Virus record (IMG/VR): IMGVR_UViG_3300009031_000368
Location: 64,001-128,000 of that record
Source of the DNA: a virus
Taxonomy: Duplodnaviria > Caudoviricetes
Length of the DNA stretch: 64,000 nt
Direction: 5' to 3' (one strand)
The notes beneath the pieces are model-generated. The model had not been told where the DNA came from. It ran no database searches and saw only the letters and a program-made list of their open reading frames with translations. Positions 6,077 through 45,826 of this stretch are shown here, piece after piece (position 1 is the stretch's first letter; every line of letters begins with the position of its first letter). Both the position numbers and the translations under genes were made by a program.

Positions 6077-6528
6077 ACGCGAAACTGTATCTTCTTTTGT
6101 TGAAGTGTCTTGTATCCCTTCGGCTCAACGGAACGTCGCCAAAGGTTAAACTCATCAAAATGTTCACCACATACACCTATTATCGATTCAGAACCGCCGA
6201 CCTTAAGTCCAAATTCTGCCTCAATGCCACATCTAAAACATGTCGTTGTTCTAAGTTGTGTCGTCAATGGACCTTCGTATTGTGGAAAATCCATACCGCC
6301 CATCGGGCCGCGACATTCATTGCCAGTTAGTCCGGCTTCGCATGTTGAATTTCCAGCATCAATGGAACGCCATAATTTAAGGCACATGCTGCATGTGTGG
6401 CTAAAACCTTCTGCCATCAATTGTTTTGGATCAGCCATCCAGTATACGTCCTTTAATAATAGATTTTGCCACGACCGGACACTTGCCGATTTCGCGCAAT
6501 CGATTGCGTGGCAAGATGCCGGATTCAA
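6073..6528 (-). CDS. Small Cys-rich putative Zn-binding protein (true start probably near 6438)
   Basis: CSMC, CFRC and CGEH motifs. Confidence 0.55.
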   Translation of the reverse strand: MNPASCHAIDCAKSASVRSWQNLLLKDVYWMADPKQLMAEGFSHTCSMCLKLWRSIDAGNSTCEAGLTGNECRGPMGGMDFPQYEGPLTTQLRTTTCFRCGIEAEFGLKVGGSESIIGVCGEHFDEFNLWRRSVEPKGYKTLQQKKIQFRV

Positions 6529-6964
6529 TCAATGCGGTAAATGCTGCACCTATCGCGCTTGACTCAATATCCATAAAGCGTGTTGCCGTTTCAGACAGTG
6601 TGCCGGTTATAAGCGCATTGTAGAAGTCGCGTGCAGTTTGATTGCCACAAGATAGATGTCGCTCGATAAGCTTGGTTCCTGTTTCAGTCTTATCCTCTCG
6701 GTACAGATCCATCTTGCGCATCACCGCGTCAACTGTTTTTCTACGCTCGTAATCGGACAACATTCCGAACAATACAAAGCTGTCCTTTAAGGCAACATAT
6801 AGCTTTTCCGGATCAGATAGTATGTCTTCATCCAATCCTTCTCGTTGTAGACTCTTGACGGCACGTACCGTAGCATGTAACCTGGTAGGAGATATGTTGC
6901 TATGTGTCTTGCGCCAATCGCGTCTTACCTGCGATCGTTCGGCTTCTTCTAATCGTAAAAACAT
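6431..6964 (-). CDS. Hypothetical protein
   Basis: 177-aa ORF in the operon; weak similarity (HATV, KSLQRxG) to 8039..8323. Confidence 0.55.
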   Translation of the reverse strand: MFLRLEEAERSQVRRDWRKTHSNISPTRLHATVRAVKSLQREGLDEDILSDPEKLYVALKDSFVLFGMLSDYERRKTVDAVMRKMDLYREDKTETGTKLIERHLSCGNQTARDFYNALITGTLSETATRFMDIESSAIGAAFTALIESGILPRNRLREIGKCPVVAKSIIKGRILDG

Positions 6965-6965
6965 A

Positions 6966-7640
6966 TCACTCCTCTGATATCGGAATAAATTGAGAGCTGG
7001 TGTTCAACATCCTTGCCGGATCAAATTTTGTCGTCGATTCACATGTAAGGATTAACTCGATCCAATAATCGGTAAAGTCAATCGTTTTACCATAATTCAC
7101 ATCAGCTATTACAAAATAGTATGGACCTATTCGTTGACCGCCTGTTAAATCTTTCATTGACGTATTGCCAACATCAAGTATTTCAACAATGTCACCAGTC
7201 GCCGGCATTCTTATTTTCTCTTCTACAGGTACATCTATCATGCTGGCTTCACGCAACGATTGCCTCGGCACATTTATCATAAACATGCTGGCCGAATACT
7301 TGTTGCCGTTTTCATCGGTCATTGTTGTGATGATGTCAGATGGCTTTAGCTGATACAATCCACGAAGCCCATACGGGCCATCATAAACTGTTCCTGTTTC
7401 ACCGACCGTTTGATTATCGGTTGGCTGATTACCATAAAGCAACGATGATTCGATATAGGTTGGATTAAATCGCTTTGTTTGGTCAAGACAATATAAATTT
7501 ATAGCCGGCATCTTCACAATGGCACCACCAACTCCCATCCGCTCCATCTTTTTCAATACTTTTTCCGATGGAGGCCAATGTAGTTTGCCCATTGTGTTGC
7601 ACCGTATGGCAGAATGGTCACCAACAATGAAACCAATCAT
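6966..7640 (-). CDS. Probable neck/head-closure protein (T4 gp14-like)
   Basis: Position in the neck region; composition and motifs (PATGDIVEI, YYFVIADV) resemble gp14-like proteins of large myoviruses. Confidence 0.5.
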   Translation of the reverse strand: MIGFIVGDHSAIRCNTMGKLHWPPSEKVLKKMERMGVGGAIVKMPAINLYCLDQTKRFNPTYIESSLLYGNQPTDNQTVGETGTVYDGPYGLRGLYQLKPSDIITTMTDENGNKYSASMFMINVPRQSLREASMIDVPVEEKIRMPATGDIVEILDVGNTSMKDLTGGQRIGPYYFVIADVNYGKTIDFTDYWIELILTCESTTKFDPARMLNTSSQFIPISEE

Positions 7641-7654
7641 TGCTGGTGAATCAA

Positions 7655-8020
7655 TTAAGTAGGCTCAGTTCGCTTTGGTCCAAGCACCAACAGGAACGTG
7701 TCGCCGGCCGCATTGTAATCGGCTGCTTCATTGGTAATCGTTAGACCATCGGCTGAGAGATCGAAGTTAGAACCTGGACGCCACAACAGCACGGCGGCCC
7801 CACTTGCGTCTCGCACAAATGCACCAATCACCGAAGTGACGGCAAAGTCAAGATCAATGTCTGCGCCGGTTGCCGGGCCGGAACCACTTAGATCAACAAG
7901 CTGAACGGAACGAAGGAAATCTGCCTCAAGCAGCTGGAAAGCCGAATCAACTTCATCCCTCAATTCGCTGGCACGAGTCGGATCGCCATAGCGGGATCCG
8001 ATAAAATACTTTGAACCCAT
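7655..8020 (-). CDS. Small hypothetical virion protein
   Basis: 121 aa, beta-rich composition, in the structural operon. Confidence 0.55.
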   Translation of the reverse strand: MGSKYFIGSRYGDPTRASELRDEVDSAFQLLEADFLRSVQLVDLSGSGPATGADIDLDFAVTSVIGAFVRDASGAAVLLWRPGSNFDLSADGLTITNEAADYNAAGDTFLLVLGPKRTEPT

Positions 8021-8038
8021 AAAATACTCCTTTTTGGA

Positions 8039-8323
8039 CTAAACTGTAATGTCCTTGAACAACTCTTTAAACTTTTCGTTTTTGCCTTTATTGTCGCGTT
8101 CAAATGAATGCTTCATGTTGCGCCTTGTCCCCTTTTGTGTCGACTTGGTGCCGCCATGTTTAAGATATCCATTCCTCTGAAGCGACTTCCTCGCTATATT
8201 AAACGCATGCTGCGTGGTTAACTTTTTATCCTTCTTAGATATAGCAACCGTAGCGTGCCGCAATAATGACGGAATATCGGCTAACGATGACTCACTGATA
8301 ACTATATCTAAACTGATAAACAT
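8039..8323 (-). CDS. Small basic hypothetical protein
   Basis: 94-aa K/R-rich ORF. Confidence 0.55.
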   Translation of the reverse strand: MFISLDIVISESSLADIPSLLRHATVAISKKDKKLTTQHAFNIARKSLQRNGYLKHGGTKSTQKGTRRNMKHSFERDNKGKNEKFKELFKDITV

Positions 8324-8325
8324 TG

Positions 8326-8637
8326 TTAGCTCGATGCCATTCTTTTTGTTATCGCGGTAATGTCTGCAATATTCTTGCGAATCTCAGTCTCGTATATGCC
8401 TTGAATCTTATTCAACGCTGAAGCAATCATCGAAAGCTTTGCCGCAACTTCTTTACCATCAACGCGAGTCTCCACATACTGTGAGAATTCAATCATGCTG
8501 TTGACGTTGCCAAGCATCCCGGCCAACCGGCCATTGAGCTGAAACAGTAAGTCTACGACACTGTAGCTATCCAGATTCTTCTTTTTCTTTGCTTCTGTTA
8601 GTTCATCGAATACTGAACGCATTATTCTTTGCCGCAT
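8326..8637 (-). CDS. Hypothetical protein, candidate processed head protein
   Basis: MRQRIMRSVFDELTEAKKKK contains an LxE/A gp21-type cleavage-like site. Confidence 0.55.
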   Translation of the reverse strand: MRQRIMRSVFDELTEAKKKKNLDSYSVVDLLFQLNGRLAGMLGNVNSMIEFSQYVETRVDGKEVAAKLSMIASALNKIQGIYETEIRKNIADITAITKRMASS

Positions 8638-8646
8638 AGTTAATTC

Positions 8647-8928
8647 CTAAAGTTGTTTGACTTTACTCGATATTGTGTCTATTAGATCAATGACCCCGTT
8701 TGTTCTATCATCAAATGCCTCAGCAATATTGGTAATTATATTATCTAAAGATCTTGTGCCGTACTGAATCGTTTTTATTAAGCCGGGCTGATCAGACGTA
8801 ACTTCTAGAGACTCGTTTTTAACGATTTCAGCCAAGTTCATCATTCTGACAATATTTTCGTATGTCACACCAGATAAAGCCTTAAGCAACTTAATATTGT
8901 TTTTTAGTTTATCGTTTATTGAATCCAT
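8647..8928 (-). CDS. Hypothetical protein
   Basis: 93-aa helical ORF in the operon. Confidence 0.55.
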   Translation of the reverse strand: MDSINDKLKNNIKLLKALSGVTYENIVRMMNLAEIVKNESLEVTSDQPGLIKTIQYGTRSLDNIITNIAEAFDDRTNGVIDLIDTISSKVKQL

Positions 8929-8958
8929 GTATCATCAACTCCAAACAAGTATATCGTA

Positions 8959-9513
8959 TTATCTACGGCTATGTCCTAAAACTTTTGTTCCGAATGTCTG
9001 AGCATACATCTGATCTGCCAATTCATTGATGCCGCCATCCTGCACAAACGCATCGATGACTTCACCTTCAGCATCCCAAACAGCCTGAATATCTTCTCTC
9101 AACGGACCATACGAAGCATCCCCGCTCACGCGGCCAGCAAACTCCTTAGCGTTTTTCAACATCTTTGACACGATGCGAAGTTCTGCAACGACTTCTGACA
9201 GTTTTGAATACGCGGCTCTTACGTTACGTTCTACTTCCTTTCGGGCTGCTTTCTCTCTTGCATTGAATTCCTCATCTGGTTCAAATGCCTCAACTGTTAA
9301 TCCGAGCTCTTTCCGCATGGCTTTTGCGGTATTTATGGCATCCTGCTTATCGTTGGTGTAATAGGTTTTGCCTTCATCACGCTTACCGTTACGCTTAACG
9401 ACAACGACCCAATCGCCAGAAGAATCTTTCTTCTGCCTCATGACTTCATATACATCTGCTGACGACTCAACCAATGAGTCTACCACTGCTTTCAATACAC
9501 GGTTACCGTTCAT
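8959..9513 (-). CDS. Hypothetical protein, candidate head protein
   Basis: 184 aa; LVES and LTVEA sites; DSSGDWVVVV resembles NNGDSWVVVV in 2935..3711. Confidence 0.55.
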   Translation of the reverse strand: MNGNRVLKAVVDSLVESSADVYEVMRQKKDSSGDWVVVVKRNGKRDEGKTYYTNDKQDAINTAKAMRKELGLTVEAFEPDEEFNAREKAARKEVERNVRAAYSKLSEVVAELRIVSKMLKNAKEFAGRVSGDASYGPLREDIQAVWDAEGEVIDAFVQDGGINELADQMYAQTFGTKVLGHSRR

Positions 9514-9516
9514 ACA

Positions 9517-10245
9517 TCATCCTATAATAAAACCAATTGGCTTCTGTTTCACTTCTTCCATAATGGTCATCATCTCTTCCTTCGCCTCTTCCAACAATGT
9601 CTGCCCATCGGCGATCTCTACATTATCCCCCGGACCTGGTAGATTTCCATACTTGCTTCTAATGCGTCCAAGCACCTTCTTAGCTTCCGCTTCAGCCCAA
9701 CGCAAATAATACAACTGTTCGCTTGGCGTCATGGCATCATAATCGATATCCTTCGACACATAACTGTAATGCACATATCCACCCGAAGATGCCGGTACAG
9801 CCATTGGATAGATACGGATCTTCCGCTCACTTCTTACGTATTCCCAATCACGCTCCGCGCCAAACACTCTAGCCGTCATTTCAATATGGTTCTGCATCTG
9901 ATAGATGTCACCAACTCCACCACCACGACCTGGCCTGAACAGTGTAGCCGGGATAGCCCTAGCGTCACTGAATGTTCCAGGATCAATCATAGCCAAGTAA
10001 TCGGTTGAGCGTCCACTTAGATTTACTTCCAATACCTGAGAACAATCATCGGCTACCGTTATTTCTCGCTCGCCTGAACCGTATTGTGTAACCGCTTCTT
10101 TGATGGTGCCAAACCATGTCAGAAACCATATGTCGGTATAATCTAAAGCGTCTTCAAAGTCATCGCCATCTAGCTCATCGCAGAAATCTCCACCGAGCCT
10201 ACGCTTGATTTTTCCGATGACACGTTCGCGGGTGAGCTTTTCCAT
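9517..10245 (-). CDS. Neck/head-tail adaptor protein (T4 gp13-like)
   Basis: IKRRLGG...ELDGDDFEDALD N-terminus and KKVLGRIRSKYGNLPGPG...DGQTLLEEAKEE C-terminus, typical of the gp13 family. Confidence 0.8.
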   Translation of the reverse strand: MEKLTRERVIGKIKRRLGGDFCDELDGDDFEDALDYTDIWFLTWFGTIKEAVTQYGSGEREITVADDCSQVLEVNLSGRSTDYLAMIDPGTFSDARAIPATLFRPGRGGGVGDIYQMQNHIEMTARVFGAERDWEYVRSERKIRIYPMAVPASSGGYVHYSYVSKDIDYDAMTPSEQLYYLRWAEAEAKKVLGRIRSKYGNLPGPGDNVEIADGQTLLEEAKEEMMTIMEEVKQKPIGFIIG

Positions 10246-11955: not shown

Positions 11956-13455
11956 TTACGGCAGGGTGACGTCGATTACGCCATAGAATTCAGGACGCAA
12001 CAGCTTCTTAGCATATCGCATCTTGATTCCCTTACGCGCCGAGAAGTCGTCAGGATCCTCAAGGGTCTGAGTCAGCTTCATCGGAACGTATGGTGCATAC
12101 ACGTAACCTGAGTCCAGGTAACTCTGTCCCTTAAGACCAACCAGGATTGTAGTCTGGTTAGCCATCAGCGGATCGATATATACCATCATTCGGTTAAACA
12201 GTGTACCGACTGCCTGCACGCCGAAATCACTTGACATCGGGCCATAGCTTGGCTGACGAATATGGGTCTGCATACCGTCGCCACCATATGGATTCTGCAC
12301 ATTCTTGGCATAAACCAGCGGTGCAAAGTCACCATGAGTAGTCAGCTGTTGCATATACGCGGCAATCTTTGGCGAAGTAACGATCCAGTTGGCAGGTGCG
12401 CGCATCGAACCAGTATGGATTTGAGCCGACATGGTGCTGATAACGGTCAACAGACCACGGATTCGGTTAATCTCATTCGGATCATCGCCACCACCAAGGT
12501 CATAACTGTCGGTGTATGAAGCATTGCTGATCAGGTCATTGATGATTTCTCGATCAACTTCAAGCGCCATCTGATTACTGAAGATGGCAACCAGTTCCTG
12601 CTCAGCATCCAGTCCATACATGGACTTCATGTCTTCCTGAGCGGTTGAACTCCATCGCGCCCGCATGCGTCGTTCAGTCGCCTTCACAACCTCCATGCTG
12701 ATTTCGATGTTGATCTCAGGAACCTGATCGTTCATTTCATTGTTGTACCAATAGACGGCAACAATGGTTGCACCATCGGCTGGCGCATCGGTGAACTTCA
12801 GGTTACTGACTCGTCCAGTCGTATAGTTGACGGTTCCGGTACCGGCTCCACCGAATGAGCCAGAACCATCGTCGACAACAACCTGAGTAGAATCATCCGG
12901 GTTGGTTGCCGTAATGGTAACGCTGATACCATTGGTGCTATCCAGTGGTCGCACCGGCTTCCAATTGAGTGTCGCATTCAGTCCTAGACCAGCTCCACCG
13001 TAATTGGTACCATCACCTGTTCCGACTGACTCTTCATCAATCTTTTCAGACGAATAGTTGGCACTGAAGGTCTGGATAACCTTATCGCCAGCAGTAATGG
13101 AACCCTTGGTGGTCGCATACTTGGCTTCGTAATAGAACACGGCGCCGTATGGGCCAGTCATCGGCTGAATTGACACCAATTCGTTAGCAATCAGGTTGGG
13201 GAAAATTCGCCTAATGGCCGGGAACAGATACTTGGTATAGGTAGCAATATTGCCAGTCAAAGTATCTTCATTCAGTGCGCCACGCACGAAGTTATACTGA
13301 TTGTTTAACAGAATGGCGGTTGCATTCCGCTTGTGTGGATCCTTAATGTTGCCAACCAGTGGTGCCCAGTTGCGCACAACCCTATTGACCCAACTATCAT
13401 CCTGAATTGTCCCGCGCACATCTTCCTGCATGGGCTTTCGATTTCTTGCTTGCAT
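11956..13455 (-). CDS. Major capsid protein (T4 gp23-like, HK97 fold) with an inserted beta-rich domain
   Basis: NWAPLV...AILLNNQ, LFPAIRRIFPNLIANELVSIQPMTGPYGAVFY, RRMRARWS, GLKGQSYLDSGYVYAPYVP, KGIKMRY motifs. Confidence 0.95.
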   Translation of the reverse strand: MQARNRKPMQEDVRGTIQDDSWVNRVVRNWAPLVGNIKDPHKRNATAILLNNQYNFVRGALNEDTLTGNIATYTKYLFPAIRRIFPNLIANELVSIQPMTGPYGAVFYYEAKYATTKGSITAGDKVIQTFSANYSSEKIDEESVGTGDGTNYGGAGLGLNATLNWKPVRPLDSTNGISVTITATNPDDSTQVVVDDGSGSFGGAGTGTVNYTTGRVSNLKFTDAPADGATIVAVYWYNNEMNDQVPEINIEISMEVVKATERRMRARWSSTAQEDMKSMYGLDAEQELVAIFSNQMALEVDREIINDLISNASYTDSYDLGGGDDPNEINRIRGLLTVISTMSAQIHTGSMRAPANWIVTSPKIAAYMQQLTTHGDFAPLVYAKNVQNPYGGDGMQTHIRQPSYGPMSSDFGVQAVGTLFNRMMVYIDPLMANQTTILVGLKGQSYLDSGYVYAPYVPMKLTQTLEDPDDFSARKGIKMRYAKKLLRPEFYGVIDVTLP

Positions 13456-13474: not shown

Positions 13475-16400
13475 TTAATCGTCAAGCCGGTCTGGAAATT
13501 GGACCGGATATGCACCTTTTCCGCCCGATTGTGCTATTAGCTCATCTAGCGGTGTTGATGTTGACTCTGTAAAACTTCTTCTTCCAAATGTGTCTTCTTC
13601 GACACTTCTTTCGTATCCTCTTCGCACACGCTCCCGCGCCTTCTCGGCCGCATACGGATCGTGTCTTGCATTTGAACTTTCTGCTAGAATTCTATCTATT
13701 TTTGATGAAGGTGCGCGTTCGCCGATAAGAGATGTTAATTTTTTACCATTTTTCATCTTATTGACGATTTCTGTTGCCCGGTTGGCACGCTCTTCAAGGA
13801 TTTCAACAGCACTCACATACTTTTGAAGTTCCCTTTCATACTGCTCCTTCATCTTTTCACTATTTTCCTTCAAAGCCTTAAGTCGTGAACCATACTTGCC
13901 TGATTCAATCTTTGCGCGTTCATGTTCTGCCGTCAATGCATTGATTCGGTCTTTTGATTCCGACAACAACTGCCTGGTTTCTGTAACTTCACCAGATAGT
14001 TTTAATGCTCTCGCCTCAGATTCAGTCAACCGCTTAACTTCGGCATTAAGACGATTCAATTCAATCTTTGAATCCCTTAAACAATCCTTACTGGCATCAA
14101 CGGTTGTCCTGGCTTCAGCCAATTCAGATCTAATGTTGGCAATATACTGGTCCTTGGCATCTACCAGTTTGGCCGTTTGGATTTCCACTTCCTTGAGGCG
14201 CTTAAGCTCACTGGATGATTCGGTCAGTAAATCCTTTAGACCTTGAACGCTTGCCGCAACTTCCGATACTTCGGCAAATTCGGCCTTCAACTGTTGGAAT
14301 CCTTCCAGCTGTGTCTTTGCCTTTTGAAGAATTCCACGAAGCTTTTCAACCTCTTCCGCCTTGGCTGATAACGATTCAATTTGATGCTTCAGTTCAATGT
14401 TCTCAACCGCAGCCGTATCGACAGGAATCTTGCCGATTTCCTTTGCCAGACGTTCTGCCAGTTCGTCAATCTCCGGTAATTGCATCGTATTAGTTACGCT
14501 TCCGGCAATTAAATCAACCATCGTGTCCTTGTTTTCATACATTGAAAACTTTTGAGCCAGATGATACTTGATGACTGCCCGTCGTCCAAATTCAACCGAT
14601 TCTGCCAGCTGATTCTTTGCGTCAGCCAGTTCGCATTCAATCCTGGCACCATTCTGCTGTTCACGCTTTACGCTGTTTTCCAAATCCTTAATGTATTCGT
14701 TGGAATCCTCTGAAAAGATGAATGGTCTGATCAGCTTAACGATACCTTCAATGGCCCGCTTAGCGCCAGCAACCGATGGATCTTCCAACATCGATTCACG
14801 CAGGTTGTCGGTCAGCTCATCCTTTGCCGCAACGACATCTTCAATCAATCGCCTGGCATAGATTTCCTTTATTCGCGACGTCTCGGTCCTTATCGCATTA
14901 CTGACCGCTTCCTCAACATCTGATTTGGAATACTGCTTATCGGTTACCGTTTGTTGAGTCGTTTCCAATAGGAACTTGTTGGCTTCCGGAATCGCGCGCT
15001 CAATCTCTTCAGAAATCGTTTTACCAATACGTTTCCTTACTTCCTCAACTGATGAACCGGCGATGCGCTCACTTTCAGCAAAAACATCCGGGTAAGCGGT
15101 TTTTGTGGCTGGATCGTAAACGACATCGAAGGTCATTAACCTGTAATCGTCACCAACAGATTCCGTTCCATCCTCAAGCTTGGTGGTAGATCCGTAACCG
15201 CGTGAACTGATACCAGGGTCTATGCCGGCTTCAATTAATCCAGTCAGAATCTTACCGGTTGGTGTTGGCAGAATTTCAGCTTCGCCGATGATTTCATTGC
15301 CTTCAATTCTTAAATCAGTGATGACGTGACTGACACGCTGAAGCCTTGTTTGCCCATCGCTGTTACCGGTCCAAAACGTATGGCCGTTTTGCTCCATGTA
15401 GAAGTTACCGTGATCAACCGATAGACAATAGATGCGACCAGCATGGTGCTCTTCTTCAATCTTCATGAATCTCTGATCAAGCCAAATGTGCTTGGAATTC
15501 GAGAAGTGCAACTGGTAAAGTGGCACCTTATTTTCTGCTTTGATGATCCTACCGGCGAATTCGTAATCACCATCAGGTTCAATGACAGAAATGCTACCAG
15601 CACGCCCAGTCTTAATCAAACACTCATGAAGGTCTTTTATAAGCTGCTCAGATACAGTGAAGACATCGTTCCTGATATTGGTGACATTTCCATGTCGTAC
15701 CGACTCAGCCTTCACTTCCTTAAACGTCTTTCCCGAATCTCTCCATTCACCATTAACCGTATGGTCATCGGTTCTGCTGTCAACAATTCTGCCATCACCG
15801 ATGGAAAACCAAAACAGCAATTCAGATAATGGACCCGGGCCTAGATTTTTGATCTCTGACGGAATATACTTATTGTAGCAGTCGCCAAGCGGCTTCAGAT
15901 AGTTGTAAAGCCTTGCGTCGTATGTCATATAACCGTCAGCATACTTACTCCATTGAATCTCAGGCGACATCTTGCTTAAGACTTCATCATAAATATACTT
16001 GGTTGACCATTCATTCTTTTGGCAAACAAACACAGCATATCCGCTATGGTTTTCCGACCTGCAACATCCTTCCGCGAGATAAATACCCATAAATGCTGCA
16101 AACACGTTTGCATCTATTACAAGGTCTTTTGACGCATCAGTTTTTGTTCCACGTAGTCCCTGTATGGCAGGCAACGTAAATGTTTTCGGTGATTCTGGAT
16201 TCCATTGAGCAGTTTTCGGAATTGCGGAATGACCATATGAAGCCCTGTTTGTAAAGATGGTTTCAGAAGTAACATACTCCTCAAACTCTCTCTTTTCACC
16301 AGGTCGTGTAACAAGAAGATTCCTGTGACCGGGAGTAAAAGTAGAATCGATACTCCTACCTTTAAAATGGTACACCGGTCCATCGTATGGCTCGTCGATG

Positions 16401-16801
16401 ATGGCATTCACGGTAGAGAGAACGGCTTTGCCATTTTTGCGGGACCAAGCCTTTTCACCTACGCCGATATCCCTGAACTTTTTCCACCCACTTTCAGTAA
16501 GTACTTGAAATTGTTCACTTTTCAGACAAGGATGGTCAAGTTCCCCCAGCAATTTCCTACCTTGCATTTTCTCTTCAAGTCGCTCCAATTCGCGCTTCCA
16601 GAGTGGTAACTCATATCGGCGATTGTTTTCGGTCGGCACACCGGCCAATGCGAACAATCCGCGCAGGTAGAGCTTCCTGTTACCATTGGCGGTAGCTTCA
16701 CCAAGCTCTGATTTGAATTTAAACGGAACAGTATCTATAAGAAGTCGTGGCTTTGTCATATTAATTTCCATATTTTTGCGCAAAATGTAACCTACAATCA
16801 C
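13475..16801 (-). CDS. Prohead core protease (T4 gp21-like) containing an intein, fused to a long coiled-coil scaffold-like region (likely start ATG 16759)
   Basis: GELDHP, VSHVITDL, ILPTPTGKIL, GISSRGYGS and FDVVYDPAT gp21 motifs; about 500 aa of coiled-coil at the C-terminus. Confidence 0.9.
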   Translation of the reverse strand: MIVGYILRKNMEINMTKPRLLIDTVPFKFKSELGEATANGNRKLYLRGLFALAGVPTENNRRYELPLWKRELERLEEKMQGRKLLGELDHPCLKSEQFQVLTESGWKKFRDIGVGEKAWSRKNGKAVLSTVNAIIDEPYDGPVYHFKGRSIDSTFTPGHRNLLVTRPGEKREFEEYVTSETIFTNRASYGHSAIPKTAQWNPESPKTFTLPAIQGLRGTKTDASKDLVIDANVFAAFMGIYLAEGCCRSENHSGYAVFVCQKNEWSTKYIYDEVLSKMSPEIQWSKYADGYMTYDARLYNYLKPLGDCYNKYIPSEIKNLGPGPLSELLFWFSIGDGRIVDSRTDDHTVNGEWRDSGKTFKEVKAESVRHGNVTNIRNDVFTVSEQLIKDLHECLIKTGRAGSISVIEPDGDYEFAGRIIKAENKVPLYQLHFSNSKHIWLDQRFMKIEEEHHAGRIYCLSVDHGNFYMEQNGHTFWTGNSDGQTRLQRVSHVITDLRIEGNEIIGEAEILPTPTGKILTGLIEAGIDPGISSRGYGSTTKLEDGTESVGDDYRLMTFDVVYDPATKTAYPDVFAESERIAGSSVEEVRKRIGKTISEEIERAIPEANKFLLETTQQTVTDKQYSKSDVEEAVSNAIRTETSRIKEIYARRLIEDVVAAKDELTDNLRESMLEDPSVAGAKRAIEGIVKLIRPFIFSEDSNEYIKDLENSVKREQQNGARIECELADAKNQLAESVEFGRRAVIKYHLAQKFSMYENKDTMVDLIAGSVTNTMQLPEIDELAERLAKEIGKIPVDTAAVENIELKHQIESLSAKAEEVEKLRGILQKAKTQLEGFQQLKAEFAEVSEVAASVQGLKDLLTESSSELKRLKEVEIQTAKLVDAKDQYIANIRSELAEARTTVDASKDCLRDSKIELNRLNAEVKRLTESEARALKLSGEVTETRQLLSESKDRINALTAEHERAKIESGKYGSRLKALKENSEKMKEQYERELQKYVSAVEILEERANRATEIVNKMKNGKKLTSLIGERAPSSKIDRILAESSNARHDPYAAEKARERVRRGYERSVEEDTFGRRSFTESTSTPLDELIAQSGGKGAYPVQFPDRLDD
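15362..16528 (-). mobile_element. Intein (389 aa) with a LAGLIDADG-type homing endonuclease, inside the prohead protease
   Basis: Begins CLKSEQFQVLTESGWK right after ELDHP; ends YCLSVDHGNFYMEQNGHTFWTGN followed by Ser; FMGIYLAEG and WFSIGDG helices. Confidence 0.92.
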
Positions 16802-19558: not shown

Positions 19559-21292
19559 TCAATATTGTTTCTTTTGCATTTCGCTTCGCAATTCCATCAT
19601 CATAGCCCTTGATTTCCTTACATCTCGGCCAACGACATCCATTCGCTCTGTTAATTCGCCTTCCGCGCGCTTAATTCTTGCATCAAGCAATTTACTGACA
19701 TTCCTTTCAGTCAATTGTCCAGCGTTTCGCTTCGTCGGCTTAACCGGCTTACGGAATGTAATGCTTTCTTCACCATAATCACCGCCGCTGTCCTGATTAT
19801 ATGCGTCTTCAATCTCAGCCTGTTGTTCCATTCCGAATGATTGGGCCTTAGCCTGCGTCTTCCCTTCGTCAATGATTTCATTCCTACGCTGTTTCCTGAT
19901 TTCCACAATCTCGTCATCGGTAAACTGCATGACGTTTTTCAAACACCATGTCAGCGATGTGCTTTCAAGAAGCGATTGTATCGTTTGCGCCTTGGCCGCT
20001 AGTGCTTCAATCTGAGACAGTTCATAAATCATTGTTGGCTTTGTCATTGCCAATGTCCATTCGGATTCGTCTGGATCTTTGTCAATAGCCAATAGGTGTG
20101 CGCGACAGACCTGTTTAAATCCAGTCATGATTTCACGCTGGATATTCATCACAGACCTGGCAAAGTTTACATCGGCATGGCTTAAATGCTTTTCTGGAAT
20201 ATCGGCACCGAATCCCAAATATGCGGCAGGAACCTTTAATGCACCTTGCAGTGCCTCTCTAAATCTATCGATATCTTCAGTTCCAGTCCATCCCAATCCA
20301 CCAATCGTTTCAATCCTTGCAGAATCCTTGCCATCTCGTGTGGGTATCCATAGATTTTCGTTCATCGACAACGGGGTAGCGCGCATATCGAGCCCACCCT
20401 TTTCGACATTGTAAAACTTCTTTTTACTATACTGTTGCTTCAATCTATTGATATATTGTCTGGCTTCAGATTCCGGCATACTGCCAACATCGATAAAGAA
20501 TGCAAGCCGCTCTGGACTTCGTTCCAGCCGATACATCAAGCTGGCATCCTCCATCATGGCAAGACGCTTCCATACCGTCCTGGCCGCTTCAACGGCACTT
20601 ATTCCATATACAGATCTGATGTGTTTGGCGCGCAATCTCCAATGGACTATTTCCCATGGCTTATACAGTATCGCACCAGTTGCCGTTATAGCCTTATCGC
20701 GCGAAGCATTGGTATTGACAAAATATTCCATGTCGGTGTCGTTGAATTCAAACCGCATATTGGTATCTTGTATATATCCCAACGTCGTTCCACTAACATC
20801 CATAATCCTTCGCATGCTGGCAGGCGGGAGATAGTTTATGCCAATGACGCCAGTTTCATCAATAAGTATTTCTCCGTATGAGTTCCCCATGTGTGCCAGT
20901 GTCCTTGCCAATGGCCATATATCGGCTTCAATTTCAAGAGCACCATGTAGGAGACCGATCAATTCAGCCTTTGTCCAATCGTCTTCCGTAACGACCCACA
21001 TGCATATACCACGATTGTAATCCGGTTGTGATATATCGTTGGCATATACGTCAAGTGCCGTTTGGATGTATGAAAAGTCATCCATCGCTTCATAATCTCG
21101 ATACCTGGCATGAAGATCGGCTTCGACTTCCAGCATCGGCCTAATCAACGAATAGTTTGATTCAGATACTCCACCGCTACCATCTACACCGAATGTGCCG
21201 CTAATCGGTGACTTAGATGAGCCGGAAATGCGCGAATCCTTCTTACCGAAATACTGTTTAAATTTATCAGATATATTGTTGGACCAACCCAT
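19559..21292 (-). CDS. Portal vertex protein (T4 gp20-like)
   Basis: YRDYEAMDD, YLPPASMRR, EAARTVWKRLAMMEDASLMYRLERSPERLAFFIDVG, ENLWIPTRDG, ALKVPAAYLG. Confidence 0.95.
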   Translation of the reverse strand: MGWSNNISDKFKQYFGKKDSRISGSSKSPISGTFGVDGSGGVSESNYSLIRPMLEVEADLHARYRDYEAMDDFSYIQTALDVYANDISQPDYNRGICMWVVTEDDWTKAELIGLLHGALEIEADIWPLARTLAHMGNSYGEILIDETGVIGINYLPPASMRRIMDVSGTTLGYIQDTNMRFEFNDTDMEYFVNTNASRDKAITATGAILYKPWEIVHWRLRAKHIRSVYGISAVEAARTVWKRLAMMEDASLMYRLERSPERLAFFIDVGSMPESEARQYINRLKQQYSKKKFYNVEKGGLDMRATPLSMNENLWIPTRDGKDSARIETIGGLGWTGTEDIDRFREALQGALKVPAAYLGFGADIPEKHLSHADVNFARSVMNIQREIMTGFKQVCRAHLLAIDKDPDESEWTLAMTKPTMIYELSQIEALAAKAQTIQSLLESTSLTWCLKNVMQFTDDEIVEIRKQRRNEIIDEGKTQAKAQSFGMEQQAEIEDAYNQDSGGDYGEESITFRKPVKPTKRNAGQLTERNVSKLLDARIKRAEGELTERMDVVGRDVRKSRAMMMELRSEMQKKQY

Positions 21293-21304: not shown

Positions 21305-23329
21305 CTATTCATCAAATCCGAATATTATTGGTTGCTGGAATGGCTCACGCTTTGTTCTATTGGATGGATTTCGCACACCGATGACCCATGAATCATCTTC
21401 ATACTCTTCACGGCTAAATGAACCAGAGATGATGCCCATCGGACGAGATGGAGGATTTTCGACAAGACTGCAAACGACACCGGATGCCGATACGGCAAGG
21501 TCATCGTGTCCTTCTGTTCCATCAATATTAAGATTCGGATGATCAATGATTCCAGTGTTTGGATCCAGTTCAAGGTTTATCAATTCTCTCCTTAATGGAG
21601 AATATGGATAAACGATCAATCTGTCTTCATAGATGGCTGCTTTAATCCGTTCCAGTGCTCTCGACTTACCAGATTCACCGCTAATCAGCGAATGCTTGAT
21701 GCCACGTTCCTCAAACTTTTGCCGCGTTTCTAAATGATGATAACTATCCGTTGTGCAATGAACGATATTGAATCCATGTGCCTTAAGGTCATATATGAGA
21801 GCGCGCAATGCTCCCGGTGTAATCTCACCATTCTTTGGTGCAATTACTTGCATGATGAAGTCAATATAGATCTCTGGCGAATATTCGATATACTCCGTTC
21901 CATCTGGCGCAAGCTTGACGACATCGATCCATCTTGAAATATGCCCAACACAGATGCCGGCCGGATCTTGTCGGCCAGCTGAAAGGTCGATATGGGCATG
22001 ACGTGGTGCATTTGGATTAATGTGGGGGATGTAAACCTTTTCCTTATATCCGCCTTTTAATCTACGCTCAGCCTGACGGCAAAGTAGGTGCCATTCAAAG
22101 TCGCCCGATTCACCACAAGCCCATGTTTCAACGGTGAATGGATGATATAGCCCTTGTTTGAAACAGTTGTCGATCTTGTCGCGCCGGCCAATAAAGGTCT
22201 TTGTCGGCATCGTGCTGACACCAGCATGGTCGCGGATTGCAAGATCTAGATCGTTTTCAAAGACCTGTCGTAGGAATGGATGGTCTGGAACAGGAACTAT
22301 TTTGGCAAATCTATCCGGCCCTGATATTTCTTTCCTTACATGCTCTACTTCATCATTCGTTAGTATTCTATTTGAACACTGGTCGTCGCCGACCAATACG
22401 TAAAATCTCTCCTTGGGATATTGCTCCGGTATAAGTTCCCATTTTGCATACTCTTTTACCATTATTTTGTTTTTAGAATCTCTCGCAGCCTTCACTCTTT
22501 CATCCGTGAATGATCCAACGACATTCTTGGATGAAGCAAGTATCATGATCCCAGGTTTAATACCCGTTCCAGTAAATCGGCTTCTGATACGAGACAATAA
22601 TGCGGTATATTGTTGGTAGGCGACTCCTTTGTCTGCACGGGCTGATCGTTTACCTTCATAAAAGTTAGCTTCGTCAAGAGCTCCTCCGTAAACGTTTCTA
22701 CCAAGTAAGCCTGGTGATCCTGGAGATGCTGTAATGATTGATATATTTTTGGGGAAGTCTATAACGCCAGCTGATACCTTGTATCCGAGCTGTTTAAAGT
22801 ACGGAGATGATTCCAAGTTTGCAATTATGTCTGCAAAAATACCGCGTCGAACCTGTTGTAAGTCGACCGACAATACACCAAATGCAATGTTTTTACCATC
22901 CATCAATCCAAGCTGCCGTTGTGGATTTGCCAGGCAATATATCTGATACACCATGTAAGGAATTGCAAGCGCGCAGTATGTGCTTTTCCCTGTCCCGACA
23001 CCGCCAGATATAATTGCTTCATAGTAGTCGCCTTCAAACATTTCAATCAAATTTTCGATTAATGGTTTGTATGTTCCGGTGCATACTTCACCAAAATAAT
23101 ATGGATCTGAATAAAACGTCTTAGGCGACACCGGCCGTTCAGAATAATGGACTGATTCCAATACATCCAGGATTTCAGATTCACCACCATTATCTAGCTC
23201 GGCAAGTGCCTGCTCCAATACTTCGCGCTCTTCCGGCGAACATGAAGCAATCATGGCCTGAAGCTCTTCAAATTCCTCTTCCGGCGTTTTTACAGATATA
23301 ATCTTACCGTTAAAATCGATTAGATGCAT
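21305..23329 (-). CDS. Terminase large subunit
   Basis: Walker A GGVGTGKS, Walker B ALDEANF, nuclease AHIDLS and GHDDLAVS; adjacent to the portal. Confidence 0.93.
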   Translation of the reverse strand: MHLIDFNGKIISVKTPEEEFEELQAMIASCSPEEREVLEQALAELDNGGESEILDVLESVHYSERPVSPKTFYSDPYYFGEVCTGTYKPLIENLIEMFEGDYYEAIISGGVGTGKSTYCALAIPYMVYQIYCLANPQRQLGLMDGKNIAFGVLSVDLQQVRRGIFADIIANLESSPYFKQLGYKVSAGVIDFPKNISIITASPGSPGLLGRNVYGGALDEANFYEGKRSARADKGVAYQQYTALLSRIRSRFTGTGIKPGIMILASSKNVVGSFTDERVKAARDSKNKIMVKEYAKWELIPEQYPKERFYVLVGDDQCSNRILTNDEVEHVRKEISGPDRFAKIVPVPDHPFLRQVFENDLDLAIRDHAGVSTMPTKTFIGRRDKIDNCFKQGLYHPFTVETWACGESGDFEWHLLCRQAERRLKGGYKEKVYIPHINPNAPRHAHIDLSAGRQDPAGICVGHISRWIDVVKLAPDGTEYIEYSPEIYIDFIMQVIAPKNGEITPGALRALIYDLKAHGFNIVHCTTDSYHHLETRQKFEERGIKHSLISGESGKSRALERIKAAIYEDRLIVYPYSPLRRELINLELDPNTGIIDHPNLNIDGTEGHDDLAVSASGVVCSLVENPPSRPMGIISGSFSREEYEDDSWVIGVRNPSNRTKREPFQQPIIFGFDE

Positions 23330-24066
23330 TACTTATCCGCCAACAGTTTAACCGATGTCGCCTGTTCAAGATCGTCACCGTTGAGATTCTTTAGCTTCTT
23401 TGCGCGCTTCAAGATATCCAACAGCTTATTGCGTGAAGCATTGTTCTTGAGCACTTCCGATACTTGACTGCCGACATTCTGTAACACTGAATCCTTTTGA
23501 GATTGCGTGTCCTCCAATGGAATCCCCATATTGACTTTTATCTCGGCGCTTGTTTGTAACAGTGACTGTGAAAGCTTCATCGCATTAGTTACGTTTGGAT
23601 TCAAAAATCCCATACTGGCTTCTTGTTCCATGGCGGTTTCAAGTCTTACAGAATTGAGCGCATGCATTTTATGCAATTCCGTCACTTCATTGATACCGGC
23701 TTCAAGTTTTGCCAGCGCTTTAGCAGCAAACTCTGGGAGATGATGTTGAGCTATTTCACCGGCTGGAATCTTATTCCGACGATACCATGACAATACCGAT
23801 GTCAATGAATCATGATCAATATGTAAATATTCTTGACAATCTTCTTGTATGTATTTAGCAATCACTGAAGGAGTAATCCCTGCTTTCAATCTGGATTCCA
23901 CTTCCGGCCAACATTTGATTCTCGTCAGCTTAGGTGGACTTTTTACAAGTTGCGGACGTCGCACGCTATTGGTAGCTGGCGTAACATCAATAACCTCGAA
24001 TCGCTTTAAATCGTCCGAATCATCGAAATCGAACACTGTCATCTCGATATCTTCATCTTCTGTCAT
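23329..24066 (-). CDS. Probable terminase small subunit
   Basis: Immediately upstream of TerL with a 1-bp overlap; N-terminal HTH-like segment followed by long helices. Confidence 0.55.
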   Translation of the reverse strand: MTEDEDIEMTVFDFDDSDDLKRFEVIDVTPATNSVRRPQLVKSPPKLTRIKCWPEVESRLKAGITPSVIAKYIQEDCQEYLHIDHDSLTSVLSWYRRNKIPAGEIAQHHLPEFAAKALAKLEAGINEVTELHKMHALNSVRLETAMEQEASMGFLNPNVTNAMKLSQSLLQTSAEIKVNMGIPLEDTQSQKDSVLQNVGSQVSEVLKNNASRNKLLDILKRAKKLKNLNGDDLEQATSVKLLADK

Positions 24067-42341: not shown

Positions 42342-43016
42342 TTACCTTAAATTCAATACTATGTAAAATTCCGGCCTTGCTGGATGTTGGAAGCAATTTA
42401 CCGTAATTTTGTCATGTTGTTCCATCACGTCACCGATACCCACCAGATATCCGGCGTCATAGCTTGACCGTCCTTTAAAGCCAAGGATGATTTGTCGTTC
42501 AGGCACAACTGGGTGAGTAAACACCTTTAACTGCAAATATCTGGATGTTCCGATTTCGGTTAACCCGGTACCTGGTTCTGCCGTTCGGTTTAACGCTACA
42601 TCTGGAATTGTCTTATCGTTGACAATCATGAACGTTGCTGGACTTCTAATCGTATCGGTATGTATGGTGTTTGACGCAACACCAATTTCCAATTCAAGCT
42701 TTTCGGCATCAACATCCATCACGTTAGCTCTCGACATAATGCCACAAACGGCTGACCGCTCAATGGTCGCAATGATGTCGTTCAATGCTTTCGCCTTAAC
42801 GGTTTGCAACATGTCTGGACCAACCTGTTTATCGGCTATGTCGAGATTTATTTCTTGCACGCTACCATCTTCGCCTTTAACGACTTTTGCCATATACCAG
42901 TGCAGCGAGGTATCTTCACTTACATCATGAATTCCAACAATACTGTTTAGACTAGAGCCTTTAAGTGCCGACATCAACTGACTTCTAACATCACTCATTG
43001 TTTTATTCTCCTTCAT
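42342..43016 (-). CDS. Paralog of the C-terminal half of the major capsid protein
   Basis: SVQEINLDIADKQV / SNTIHTDTIRSPATFMIV / IILGFKGRSSYDAGY versus MCP QVPEINIEISMEVV / SAQIHTGSMRAPANWIVT / ILVGLKGQSYLDSGY. Confidence 0.85.
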   Translation of the reverse strand: MKENKTMSDVRSQLMSALKGSSLNSIVGIHDVSEDTSLHWYMAKVVKGEDGSVQEINLDIADKQVGPDMLQTVKAKALNDIIATIERSAVCGIMSRANVMDVDAEKLELEIGVASNTIHTDTIRSPATFMIVNDKTIPDVALNRTAEPGTGLTEIGTSRYLQLKVFTHPVVPERQIILGFKGRSSYDAGYLVGIGDVMEQHDKITVNCFQHPARPEFYIVLNLR

Positions 43017-43485
43017 TAGTTTTTAATCGCTCAATACGAAACATTACATCAATAAAAATTTTACCATCCACGGCTTGCGCTATCAATGACTTAGACGCCG
43101 CAACGGCAAGACGGTTCAACAAATATTCTTCATCGTCCATGTGGTATGGAATACCCGGCTCATCTTTATAATAAAATAAGCACGCATTCAATGCGTTGAC
43201 TGTCGCGTCATCATATGCTGTAACTATATCATCGAACGGATAATATATAATTGTAATGCCAGCATCTGTCAGATTAGAAGCTGTTCGTTGTATTGCCATA
43301 AACAATAACCTGACAAACCTTCTTACCTGATCTCGAAATTGTTTGACACCTTCGTCAGCAATATCCTTCACATATTGAAGCTGTCTATCATAAATTGAAG
43401 CTAACGCTAATTTATCTCCACAATATGTATTGCTAATCAGTGGCTTCCACTTTTCGACAAGTTCATTATTCACCGTTTCATCCAA
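43003..43485 (-). CDS. Paralog of the N-terminal part of the major capsid protein
   Basis: NELVEKWKPLI...LASIYDRQLQYV...LLFMAIQRTASNL versus MCP NRVVRNWAPLV...TAILLNNQYNFV...YLFPAIRRIFPNL. Confidence 0.75.
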   Translation of the reverse strand: MDETVNNELVEKWKPLISNTYCGDKLALASIYDRQLQYVKDIADEGVKQFRDQVRRFVRLLFMAIQRTASNLTDAGITIIYYPFDDIVTAYDDATVNALNACLFYYKDEPGIPYHMDDEEYLLNRLAVAASKSLIAQAVDGKIFIDVMFRIERLKTNEGE

Positions 43486-44725
43486 TCATGTATTGTGGTT
43501 TTACCCATCGGCTCATCCACTCAAGCGGCTCCGACAAAGCATACAGCTGACGGAATTCCTGTATATACTGATTGGCTGTTTCGTAACCGGTGACATACAG
43601 CGCATTCTCGAAAGACCGTGCCGCTGAATCGGTAAAGTTAAATGAACCGGTCCATACCGCGTATGGCACCAACACGTTGACGTTACCGAATCGTGATGGC
43701 ACATACTGCCTCTCATATCGGCAGAACACCATAAACTTATGGTGCATTCTTTCTGACGCCTGATTCTCACGGTCACAATTTCCCACACATCGAACCGGAT
43801 CCACGTTGGTTCCTTCACCTAACAGCAATCCAATATCGTTGTATCGGTTCAACCCGCAATGCAGCTTACCGTATGATGCCTGTAACCGCCTAACGAAATC
43901 TGAACCGTTATCGTCCGGCCGGAGGAAATCTTCCTTTTGAACCAGTATCGCGCAATCTTTTTCCGACAATGCATCCAGTATACGCTTACTTGTCATCCAA
44001 GCCACACATCCGACAACGGCATCTGCTTCATGGATGTAGGCAGTGAGCGCCGTCGATAGATTCCTGAAATGGACACTGACACTTGCGTCAATATTCATCC
44101 TTGTATAATCATGTTGCGCGAATCCACCGGAACCTGTTGGTAGTTTTACATCGTTTAGATTTTCAATCCGCTTTACCGCTGTCGATTGTGCAATTGATTG
44201 CGCGTTATCTGAAACAACCTTTGCTTCTACTTCTGGATTACCAACTGGTGGTCCATCAACCACTACCTTCTTTTTCGTAGGTGTCTTTGCGCGCTGCCAC
44301 TGACGGTACATCTTGCCAACATCAAGCGCACCATCTTTTTCTTTCGCGATCCATGCTGTGGCGCGAGATTCACCAATAAGAAGTGACATCACAGAACTGT
44401 AAAAGAAATCATCGAACGGTGGCTCTGGTAAAAAGTGTTGTTCCGCTGGATGTCCTGTAGTTAGCTTGACGCCATCATTGTAAAACTTCTCGCGGATCTT
44501 AACCGCGTACTGAAGTTGTCCATCCGTAGCTGTTGGAAACTCCGGCCAGCCACGCTTAACCTGTTCAACGTAAAGCTTACCGACATATTCCTCGTGACAC
44601 GATGGACATTCCTTCAATTTCCATTCAGCAATTCTGTCTTCGTATCCTGGCGATAGCGTGAACTCCTTTTGGCTAAAATGTCCACAACTCATCTGAAGTT
44701 GAAATCGCTTTTTACCATATCCCAT
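43478..44725 (-). CDS. Zn-ribbon protein fused to a PLD-family (HKD) nuclease domain
   Basis: N-terminal SCGH...CPSC; C-terminal RMHHKFMVF...VWTGSFNFT...FENAL. Confidence 0.8.
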   Translation of the reverse strand: MGYGKKRFQLQMSCGHFSQKEFTLSPGYEDRIAEWKLKECPSCHEEYVGKLYVEQVKRGWPEFPTATDGQLQYAVKIREKFYNDGVKLTTGHPAEQHFLPEPPFDDFFYSSVMSLLIGESRATAWIAKEKDGALDVGKMYRQWQRAKTPTKKKVVVDGPPVGNPEVEAKVVSDNAQSIAQSTAVKRIENLNDVKLPTGSGGFAQHDYTRMNIDASVSVHFRNLSTALTAYIHEADAVVGCVAWMTSKRILDALSEKDCAILVQKEDFLRPDDNGSDFVRRLQASYGKLHCGLNRYNDIGLLLGEGTNVDPVRCVGNCDRENQASERMHHKFMVFCRYERQYVPSRFGNVNVLVPYAVWTGSFNFTDSAARSFENALYVTGYETANQYIQEFRQLYALSEPLEWMSRWVKPQYMIG

Positions 44726-45088: not shown

Positions 45089-45612
45089 CTGAACCTGCCA
45101 ACACCGTCATACTCTAGCCACTTTTGCTTAACTAATAGCTCTGTCGCGATAGAAGACGAAAGCCCATCATCGGAATACCCTAACAGTTCATCAATTTTGT
45201 CACATATAACATCGGAGTCGGTCCATTCGGTAAAACATGAGAGCTGCAACAGTTCAATGCCTTCAGGCGTATGAAGAGTAATATCTCGTTTGCAATTATC
45301 GTCTAGATCTATCTGATGATTGCGCTCAAGTCTTTTAACCATCTTGGTAAATTTATTACAAAAACACGCTAACTTTGTCCAATCTACTTTACGCATAAAA
45401 GTTGTGCTGCTGTTAGGCAGACCACTACTAACGATCAATATGTATTCATCACCAATTTTTGAGACAGAAAATTGAAAAGGATTATTACGAAATTCATCCT
45501 CATCTATACTTGCTGTTAAAACAAAATCACTCATCAGATACTCCCGCAAGTCGCTTAAGCTCTCCTGTCGACGCCCCAAGTTCATCGGCGATATCGTTAA
45601 ACCCTGAATCAT
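45073..45612 (-). CDS. Hypothetical protein
   Basis: 179-aa ORF overlapping the upstream gene. Confidence 0.5.
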   Translation of the reverse strand: MIQGLTISPMNLGRRQESLSDLREYLMSDFVLTASIDEDEFRNNPFQFSVSKIGDEYILIVSSGLPNSSTTFMRKVDWTKLACFCNKFTKMVKRLERNHQIDLDDNCKRDITLHTPEGIELLQLSCFTEWTDSDVICDKIDELLGYSDDGLSSSIATELLVKQKWLEYDGVGRFRWIKS

Positions 45613-45826
45613 CTGGTGTAGGTTCTATATCCGGTTGTTCATCGGTATCGTGTTCCCATCGCCTAGAGGCAATCACCGACAATACATCAAGCTGCAACCT
45701 GGCGACATTTGTCACATTAGGATTTAAACATCCCATGGCTGCTTCCTGCTCTACTGAAAACTCGAGCCGTTTACGGTTCAAGCCTGCCAACATGACCAAT
45801 TCATCATATGTACTAAATTCACTCAT
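45527..45826 (-). CDS. Truncated paralog of the probable small terminase
   Basis: LNRKRLEFSVEQEAAMGCLNPNVTN versus LNSVRLETAMEQEASMGFLNPNVTN. Confidence 0.85.
   Translation of the reverse strand: MSEFSTYDELVMLAGLNRKRLEFSVEQEAAMGCLNPNVTNVARLQLDVLSVIASRRWEHDTDEQPDIEPTPDDSGFNDIADELGASTGELKRLAGVSDE

Follow-up and report, generated by a model that had tools for sequence, protein, structure and literature searches.

Capsid protein paralogs and the N/C gene pair

The major capsid protein (MCP) of phage T4, gp23 (PF07068; PDB 5VF3, 7VRT), is encoded by one gene and has an insertion domain. Second copies of capsid proteins are known: vertex proteins such as T4 gp24, and size-redirecting proteins of satellites such as Ccm of SaPIbov5 (PDB 7RWZ), a satellite-encoded MCP homologue which redirects the capsid size of the helper phage. 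Here we describe a pair of small adjacent genes, termed N and C, from a 64,000-nt stretch of viral DNA (bases 64001–128000 of the 231.7-kb IMG/VR virus record IMGVR_UViG_3300009031_000368; hereafter the window). The same sequence is present in groundwater metagenomes, and its source is an uncultured jumbo phage. Sequence comparisons indicate that both open reading frames (ORFs) descend from an MCP gene of the T4 type, i.e. of the Gp23 family, and modelling predicts that the C ORF by itself forms a complete HK97 core.

The pair resembles T4 gp23 in several respects: the profile comparison and the relative P0003 (described below) point to common sequence descent, gp23 is the best structural match, and the KW.PL motif is found on the N ORF. 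It differs from gp23, a single gene with an insertion domain, in that it consists of two genes, is stripped of that domain, keeps 19 of 57 conserved positions and lies outside the head module. With T4 gp24 (PDB 1YUE) it shares the HK97 fold (Z 11.4) and the status of an MCP paralog within the same phage. However, gp24 is a single 427-aa polypeptide with an insertion domain, encoded beside gene 23, whereas the pair is divided into two genes, lacks that domain and lies at a distance of 29 kb from the MCP gene; the first-pass annotation of this DNA, made from the sequence alone, had set the pair apart from gp24 as well, and rightly.

SaPIbov5 Ccm is likewise an HK97-fold homologue of an MCP and not a main shell subunit. 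Unlike the pair, which is of the Gp23 type and has no sign of a satellite about it, Ccm is satellite-encoded, acts on the capsid of a helper and is of the HK97 gp5 type. The only sequence relatives found are P0003 and P0004, which are also stripped Gp23 units without the insertion domain in a non-structural neighbourhood. Their unit, however, is undivided, includes part of the N-terminal region and is present threefold, and no counterpart of the N ORF was found. Literature searches yielded no account of a Gp23-type paralog that lacks the insertion domain, is encoded separately from its N-terminal part and lies among non-structural genes.

Homology and predicted fold of the C gene

The MCP of the phage itself serves as the comparator here. 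Identity of the pair to MCPs is only ~25%, and the C ORF matches the Pfam Gp23 family (PF07068) with 18.5 bits (E 0.0015), under the gathering score of 24.4 bits. Against a custom Gp23 profile made from 13 Gp23-type MCPs it scores 22.5 bits, which none of 2000 shuffled sequences equals (best shuffle 9.6), and phmmer comparisons with ~95 MCPs give up to 32 bits. With the BLASTP match of the N ORF (E 2e-5), these scores uphold the earlier proposal of an MCP paralog. The motifs on which that proposal was built are indeed present, both those assigned to the P/A domain (IHTDTIRSPATF in comparison with IHTGSMRAPANW, and GFKGRSSYDAGY with GLKGQSYLDSGY) and those assigned to the N-arm (KWKPLI, and LFMAIQRTASNL in comparison with LFPAIRRIFPNL).

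The insertion domain of the Gp23 family sits between two strands of the E-loop. It is absent from the C ORF, as had been claimed: ~124 residues of the phage's own MCP (about 123–247) are without counterpart and are spanned by residues 42–49 of the C ORF. Of the 57 Gp23 positions that are conserved in at least 85% of 46 MCPs, the C ORF retains 19, mainly A-domain glycines and core residues. The motifs VQPM..P.G.F, spine-helix DAE, the PYVPL loop and TRY are altered or deleted, and IHDV stands in place of VQPM. The fold is retained, but many of the most conserved motifs of the family are not, and most of the conserved contact motifs are lacking.

AlphaFold2 gives a model of the C ORF with a predicted local distance difference test score (pLDDT) of 71.9 and a predicted template modelling score (pTM) of 0.69 when a 50-row alignment is supplied, and a pLDDT of 37 from the single sequence. 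Every top match of the model in a Foldseek search of the PDB is an HK97-fold capsid protein. After VIA re-alignment T4 gp23 comes first, with Z 14.2 over 196 residues and residues 14–218 of the model placed on gp23 105–519. T4 gp24 (Z 11.4), HK97 gp5 (near Z 10), SaPIbov5 Ccm (Z 9.8; root-mean-square deviation 3.0) and encapsulins (Z 9.4–9.7) score lower. The nearest models in the ESM Atlas are all Gp23, with a TM score of 0.70 over residues 3–218; a feature search of the ESM Atlas with the C ORF produced no usable match, and phmmer against PDB sequences nothing useful. The HK97 likeness on which the first-pass annotation had staked its claim is therefore borne out by structure prediction.

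Residue 105 of T4-like gp23 is within RAIPNL, shortly ahead of VQPM at 114, and the C ORF therefore starts at the end of the N-arm. According to the model the C ORF contains all parts of an HK97 core: the P-domain strand, E-loop, spine helix, A domain and C-terminal strands.

A compact HK97 protein of this kind brings encapsulins to mind, i.e. the C product might self-assemble as a small encapsulin-like shell, with the N product or the PLD-like nuclease encoded upstream as cargo or scaffold. The C ORF has a minimal HK97 fold, the size of an encapsulin and no insertion domain, encapsulins are among the fold matches (Z 9.4–9.7), and in encapsulin operons cargo genes lie directly upstream of shell genes. 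Nevertheless T4 gp23 is clearly the better match (Z 14.2), the sequence points to descent from Gp23, and no targeting peptide was identified. We consider an encapsulin-like shell very improbable.

The N gene and its tail

BLASTP aligns residues 2–72 of the N ORF with residues 19–88 of the MCP of the phage itself (28% identity, E 2e-5). The Smith-Waterman score of the N ORF with this MCP, 68, is equalled by none of 1000 shuffles, the best of which reaches 47. Positions 4–75 of the Gp23 profile align N-end to N-end with N ORF residues 6–72 at a low score, which 7 of 2000 shuffles attain; once the phage's own MCP is excluded from the profile, 28 of 2000 do. The N ORF has no match to Pfam Gp23.

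Tryptophan 13 of the N ORF is in the sole invariant column of the N-terminal family alignment. It is inside the KW.PL motif, which is also found at the start of T4 gp23. In T4 gp23 this region comprises the propeptide, which is cut after Glu65 during head maturation, and the N-arm. The L-x-E site of the family is aligned to A-D-E in the N ORF, which makes cleavage uncertain. The KW.PL motif of the N-terminal propeptide is present in this phage's paralog, yet on the separate N ORF and not on the core polypeptide.

The first-pass annotation had assigned the whole N ORF to the N-arm region of the MCP. This stands for the first 72 of the 160 residues, but the remaining 88 are unmatched: comparisons of this tail (residues 73–160) with the MCP, the C ORF, P0003, P0004 and the protein databases searched gave nothing significant. 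Hidden homology in the other reading frames of the pair was not found. A 16-residue likeness between the tail and the 'kvyvDP' strand of P0003 was dropped, as 29 of 1000 shuffles equal it. A feature search of the ESM Atlas with the N ORF gave weak matches to small helical proteins alone, which were treated as noise.

Two separately translated genes

Both ORFs exist as originally described; they are on the minus strand and colinear with the MCP. Ten further contigs, assembled by ENA, JGI or Logan, contain the 1149-nt stretch of the pair with 100% identity, and public runs from four studies carry it. A contig of an independent study spans the N/C junction with zero differences. The pair is not an assembly error, and the suspicion that a sequencing error had divided one full-length gene, which the first-pass annotation had raised against its own proposal, has not been borne out. 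None of the public runs listed as carrying the stretch is an RNA run.

As listed, the C ORF begins at ATG 43016, which yields the 14-bp overlap with the N ORF that had been reported. However, ATG 42998 is 4 nt past the TAA of the N ORF, and gene callers chose it on each of the ten further contigs. The later start is preferred because it has AAGGAG 9 nt upstream, leaves a gap of 4 nt and is the one called elsewhere; the overlap is probably not real, as it exists only if ATG 43016 starts the gene. For the N gene, the gene callers on other contigs use GTG 43473, giving 156 aa, and this codon begins 4 nt past the TGA of the upstream PLD gene. The junctions at 43471–43480 and 42996–43005 (minus strand) read TGAAACGGTG and TAAAACAATG, with a common layout of stop, AAC, purine and start. 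Thus the PLD/N junction and the N/C junction are alike (stop, 4 nt, start), which fits translational coupling.

The frame of the C gene is +1 relative to that of the N gene, and alternative frames are riddled with stops. Codon scores are 0.30 for N and 0.23 for C, compared with a genome range of 0.29 ± 0.10; the N gene has a genome-typical score in frame 0 only. These properties are those of two genuine genes, translated separately and coupled in translation.

The two ORFs lie side by side in colinear order, with C in the +1 frame, and this invites the thought that they encode one protein, either divided by a sequencing error or joined by programmed frameshifting. We regard this as extremely unlikely. 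The junction is identical in ten assemblies and in the contig of the independent study, no slippery site fits, and the last sense codon, GAA, would be unable to re-pair in the +1 frame. AAGGAG with its 9-nt spacer fits normal initiation at 42998. In addition, a fusion would carry the N-arm segment twice.

Split gene or two histories

The pair was first described as one MCP gene split in two. That both ORFs are MCP-derived agrees with the comparisons above, but a clean split fits less well with what is found. The end of the N-arm, equivalent to residues 77–88 of the phage's own MCP, occurs in both ORFs, as LFMAIQRTASNL in N and as QLMSALKGSSL in C. The nearest relatives also differ. Among 96 MCPs, the phage's own is the best match to the N part (score 68, versus 49 for the runner-up) but the 58th best to the C ORF, for which the top MCPs are from another clade (L035, L036 and L039) and P0003 is closest of all. 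The N-arm segment in both ORFs, the extra tail of 88 residues and the different nearest MCPs all argue against a clean split.

In a FastTree phylogeny the four mini modules (the C ORF and those of P0003 and P0004) branch outside all MCPs. Their branches are very long, so that long-branch attraction is possible, and the C ORF is paired with the first P0003 module. Two histories fit the sequences. The pair may represent two partial copies of an MCP gene with complementary loss, or an old stripped core may have been joined later to a piece from the front end of the phage's own MCP.

Relatives of the stripped unit

An exhaustive HMMER search of 1.8 billion representative proteins with the C ORF found a single relative, P0003, a protein of 546 aa (E 1.6e-8). 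P0003 is a firm member of the Gp23 family (E 5e-37) and consists of two modules. Over its full length the C ORF can be aligned with P0003 residues 37–279, with 23% identity over 249 columns by BLASTP; in a MAFFT alignment the identity between the P0003/P0004 unit and the C ORF is 27% over the whole of the latter. Residues 1–285 of P0003 represent a one-piece form, which extends from about the LLENQ motif of the propeptide through the core. A fused form in relatives, which the first-pass annotation had suggested looking for, therefore exists, inasmuch as the core in P0003 is preceded by part of the N-terminal region.

P0003 is encoded by L013, a 21-kb contig of an uncultured phage from a Logan assembly. 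Just upstream is P0004, a 243-aa gene which constitutes a third module, so that three modules without the insertion domain are in tandem, as a 243-aa gene and a 546-aa double. DNA polymerase III alpha and a DHH protein are encoded downstream. No counterpart of the N ORF was found in L013. The replication-type neighbours in both phages place the stripped units outside the head module. L013 also contains, at 6226–9656 and downstream of DNA polymerase III alpha, five tandem paralogous genes of 216–238 aa with 32–39% mutual identity, which match nothing in Pfam and show no similarity to the mini-gp23 modules by BLAST.

Other searches added no members. GenBank phages searched with either ORF or with the DNA yielded nothing, as did pattern scans of IMG/VR with either ORF or P0003 and a pattern scan of JGI metagenomes with alignment A6. 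Word-index protein searches, which covered all but the 'longer' length class, returned only the ORFs themselves, plus P0004, already in alignment A2. In five related IMG/VR jumbo-phage records the stripped unit is absent and only the real MCP is present, and tblastn with P0003 residues 1–285 against GenBank phages finds real MCPs alone. The pair is part of a rare, fast-evolving 'mini-gp23' lineage, the other found members of which are in one uncultured phage contig only.

Genomic location and the head module

The head module of the phage is of the T4 type (Table 1). The pair is on the same strand as the MCP gene but ~29 kb away, outside this module, and a PLDc_2 protein is encoded directly upstream; on the distance and the PLD neighbour the original description was accurate. 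A Toprim primase, a helicase and a DnaB-like helicase follow at 5–12 kb from the pair. The first gene of the string to which the pair belongs encodes 99 aa and copies an internal segment of a 245-aa protein encoded at 23329–24066 (51% identity over 45 aa, E 2e-11), which is a probable small terminase. PHROGs and PADLOC gave zero matches for the N ORF, the C ORF or their neighbours.

Table 1. Positions in the window of the N and C genes, their parts, neighbouring genes and head genes
Feature	Position	Strand	Basis or description
N gene, 160 aa from TTG at 43485 or 156 aa from GTG at 43473	43003..43485	minus	ORF list, sequence, codon score
N gene codons 1–72, MCP propeptide and N-arm-like, KW.PL motif, ends in LFMAIQRTASNL	43270..43485	minus	BLASTP, profile, shuffles
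N gene codons 73–160, tail of 88 residues	43006..43269	minus	no significant match
AAGGAG Shine-Dalgarno, 9 nt upstream of C-gene ATG, within N-gene end	43008..43013	minus	sequence
C gene, 218 aa	42342..42998	minus	predicted stripped HK97 core, Gp23 type
PLD-like (PLDc_2) protein, 415 aa, upstream neighbour in same tight gene string	43478..44725	minus	Pfam E 4.7e-7
First gene of same string, 99 aa, after 113-nt gap	45527..45826	minus	segment copy
Major capsid protein, 499 aa, comparator	11956–13455	minus	Pfam Gp23 E 4e-66
1108-aa protein with prohead protease domain	13475–16801	minus	Peptidase_S77, residues 492–571
Portal	19559–21292		Portal_T4, E 2e-60

Among GenBank phages, the MCP most similar to that of this phage (33% identity) comes from LR756511.1, an uncultured phage of 595 kb; closer MCPs, at 44–46% identity, are found solely in IMG/VR contigs. 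The 1108-aa protein is encoded directly upstream of the MCP gene and far exceeds T4 gp21 in size; it may be a fusion of protease and scaffold. The T4 late-promoter word TATAAATA occurs only once in the 64-kb window, where chance alone would give 3.3 occurrences. The classical late promoter therefore seems not to be used by this T4-type phage.

Possible role of the pair

The interpretation we favour, to which we give about an even chance, is that the pair is kept by selection and acts as an accessory mimic of the MCP, and not as a shell subunit or a vertex protein of the gp24 type. Maintenance is inferred because the frames are open at ~25% identity, codon scores are typical, the residues that determine the fold are kept and intact modules are present in a second phage. 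Where the pair lies, which motifs it has lost and the tandem fusion seen in its relatives make a shell or gp24-type role unlikely.

Several observations weigh against the proposal of an accessory mimic. The pair is the sole Gp23 paralog found in the phage, which leaves room for a vertex role. The AlphaFold2 model of the C ORF rests on a Gp23 alignment and is biased to that fold; homology itself is shown by the sequence. The homology of the N part is moderate, with a profile P of about 0.004–0.014. Lastly, all copies of the pair are identical, and substitution patterns are therefore uninformative on selection.

Alternatively, the pair would be a functionless relic of an old second set of head genes, derived from a duplication or a captured element, with frames open by chance. 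The copy of a terminase fragment nearby (45527–45826), an N ORF tail that matches nothing, and a family nearly absent from databases are what one might expect of such debris. On the other hand, an unselected frame of 218 codons at ~25% identity would be broken repeatedly, as the alternative frames are, and here one finds genome-typical codon usage, coupled junctions with a Shine-Dalgarno sequence, retention of the fold-determining glycines and core residues, and three intact modules in a second phage. A relic seems to us rather improbable.

Another proposal is that the pair is a minor component of the virion, either a two-chain specialised pentamer at the vertices or a portal-adjacent subunit, doing the job of gp24. 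No further Gp23 paralogs were found in the 231.7-kb record, the C ORF is predicted to be a complete HK97 core, and the N ORF has a propeptide-like part that is closest to the phage's own MCP. However, 29 kb separate the pair from the head module, its gene string includes nuclease and replication genes, the conserved lattice motifs have disappeared, and the tandem-fused double modules of L013 are unfit for a lattice position. The record is estimated by CheckV to be 76% complete, and a gp24 gene could be elsewhere; moreover, many T4-type phages are without gp24 and have the MCP at the vertices instead. A virion role therefore seems unlikely.

To return to an accessory mimic, the N product might dock to proteins that bind the MCP N-terminus, e.g. 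the scaffold or the prohead protease, while the C product would present an MCP-like body. Binding to partners of the MCP N-terminus would explain why the N product tracks the phage's own MCP. Possible targets are head assembly of the phage itself, a competitor, and a host factor that recognizes the MCP. A complex prediction for the N and C products scored 0.00; it gives no verdict and counts neither for nor against binding. The Gol peptide of T4 gp23, which triggers the Lit protease, corresponds to residues ~93–122, the segment around the N/C break. The equivalent segment is poorly conserved in both ORFs, and this speaks against a decoy specifically of the Lit type.

A broader proposal can also be considered, although we think it doubtful. 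The pair would be one of a set of head-protein mimics, i.e. pieces of capsid, small and large terminase, portal and protease that lie among non-structural genes and are expressed apart from the head module, acting as decoys or blockers for host immune sensors directed at precisely such proteins or for the assembly machinery of competing phages or satellites. Here the stripped HK97 core would be the recognized surface and the N-terminal piece would serve for docking.

Significance

The pair differs from the known second copies of capsid proteins in that the fold is cut to a 218-residue core, parted from its N-terminal docking part, and placed amid nuclease and replication genes. For structural work, the C gene provides a naturally occurring, minimal HK97 core of the Gp23 type. 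If the pair is functional, it would mean that the capsid fold has been re-used beyond shell building in large T4-type phages, and it could have a bearing on the control of head assembly or on the interplay with capsid-sensing defences.

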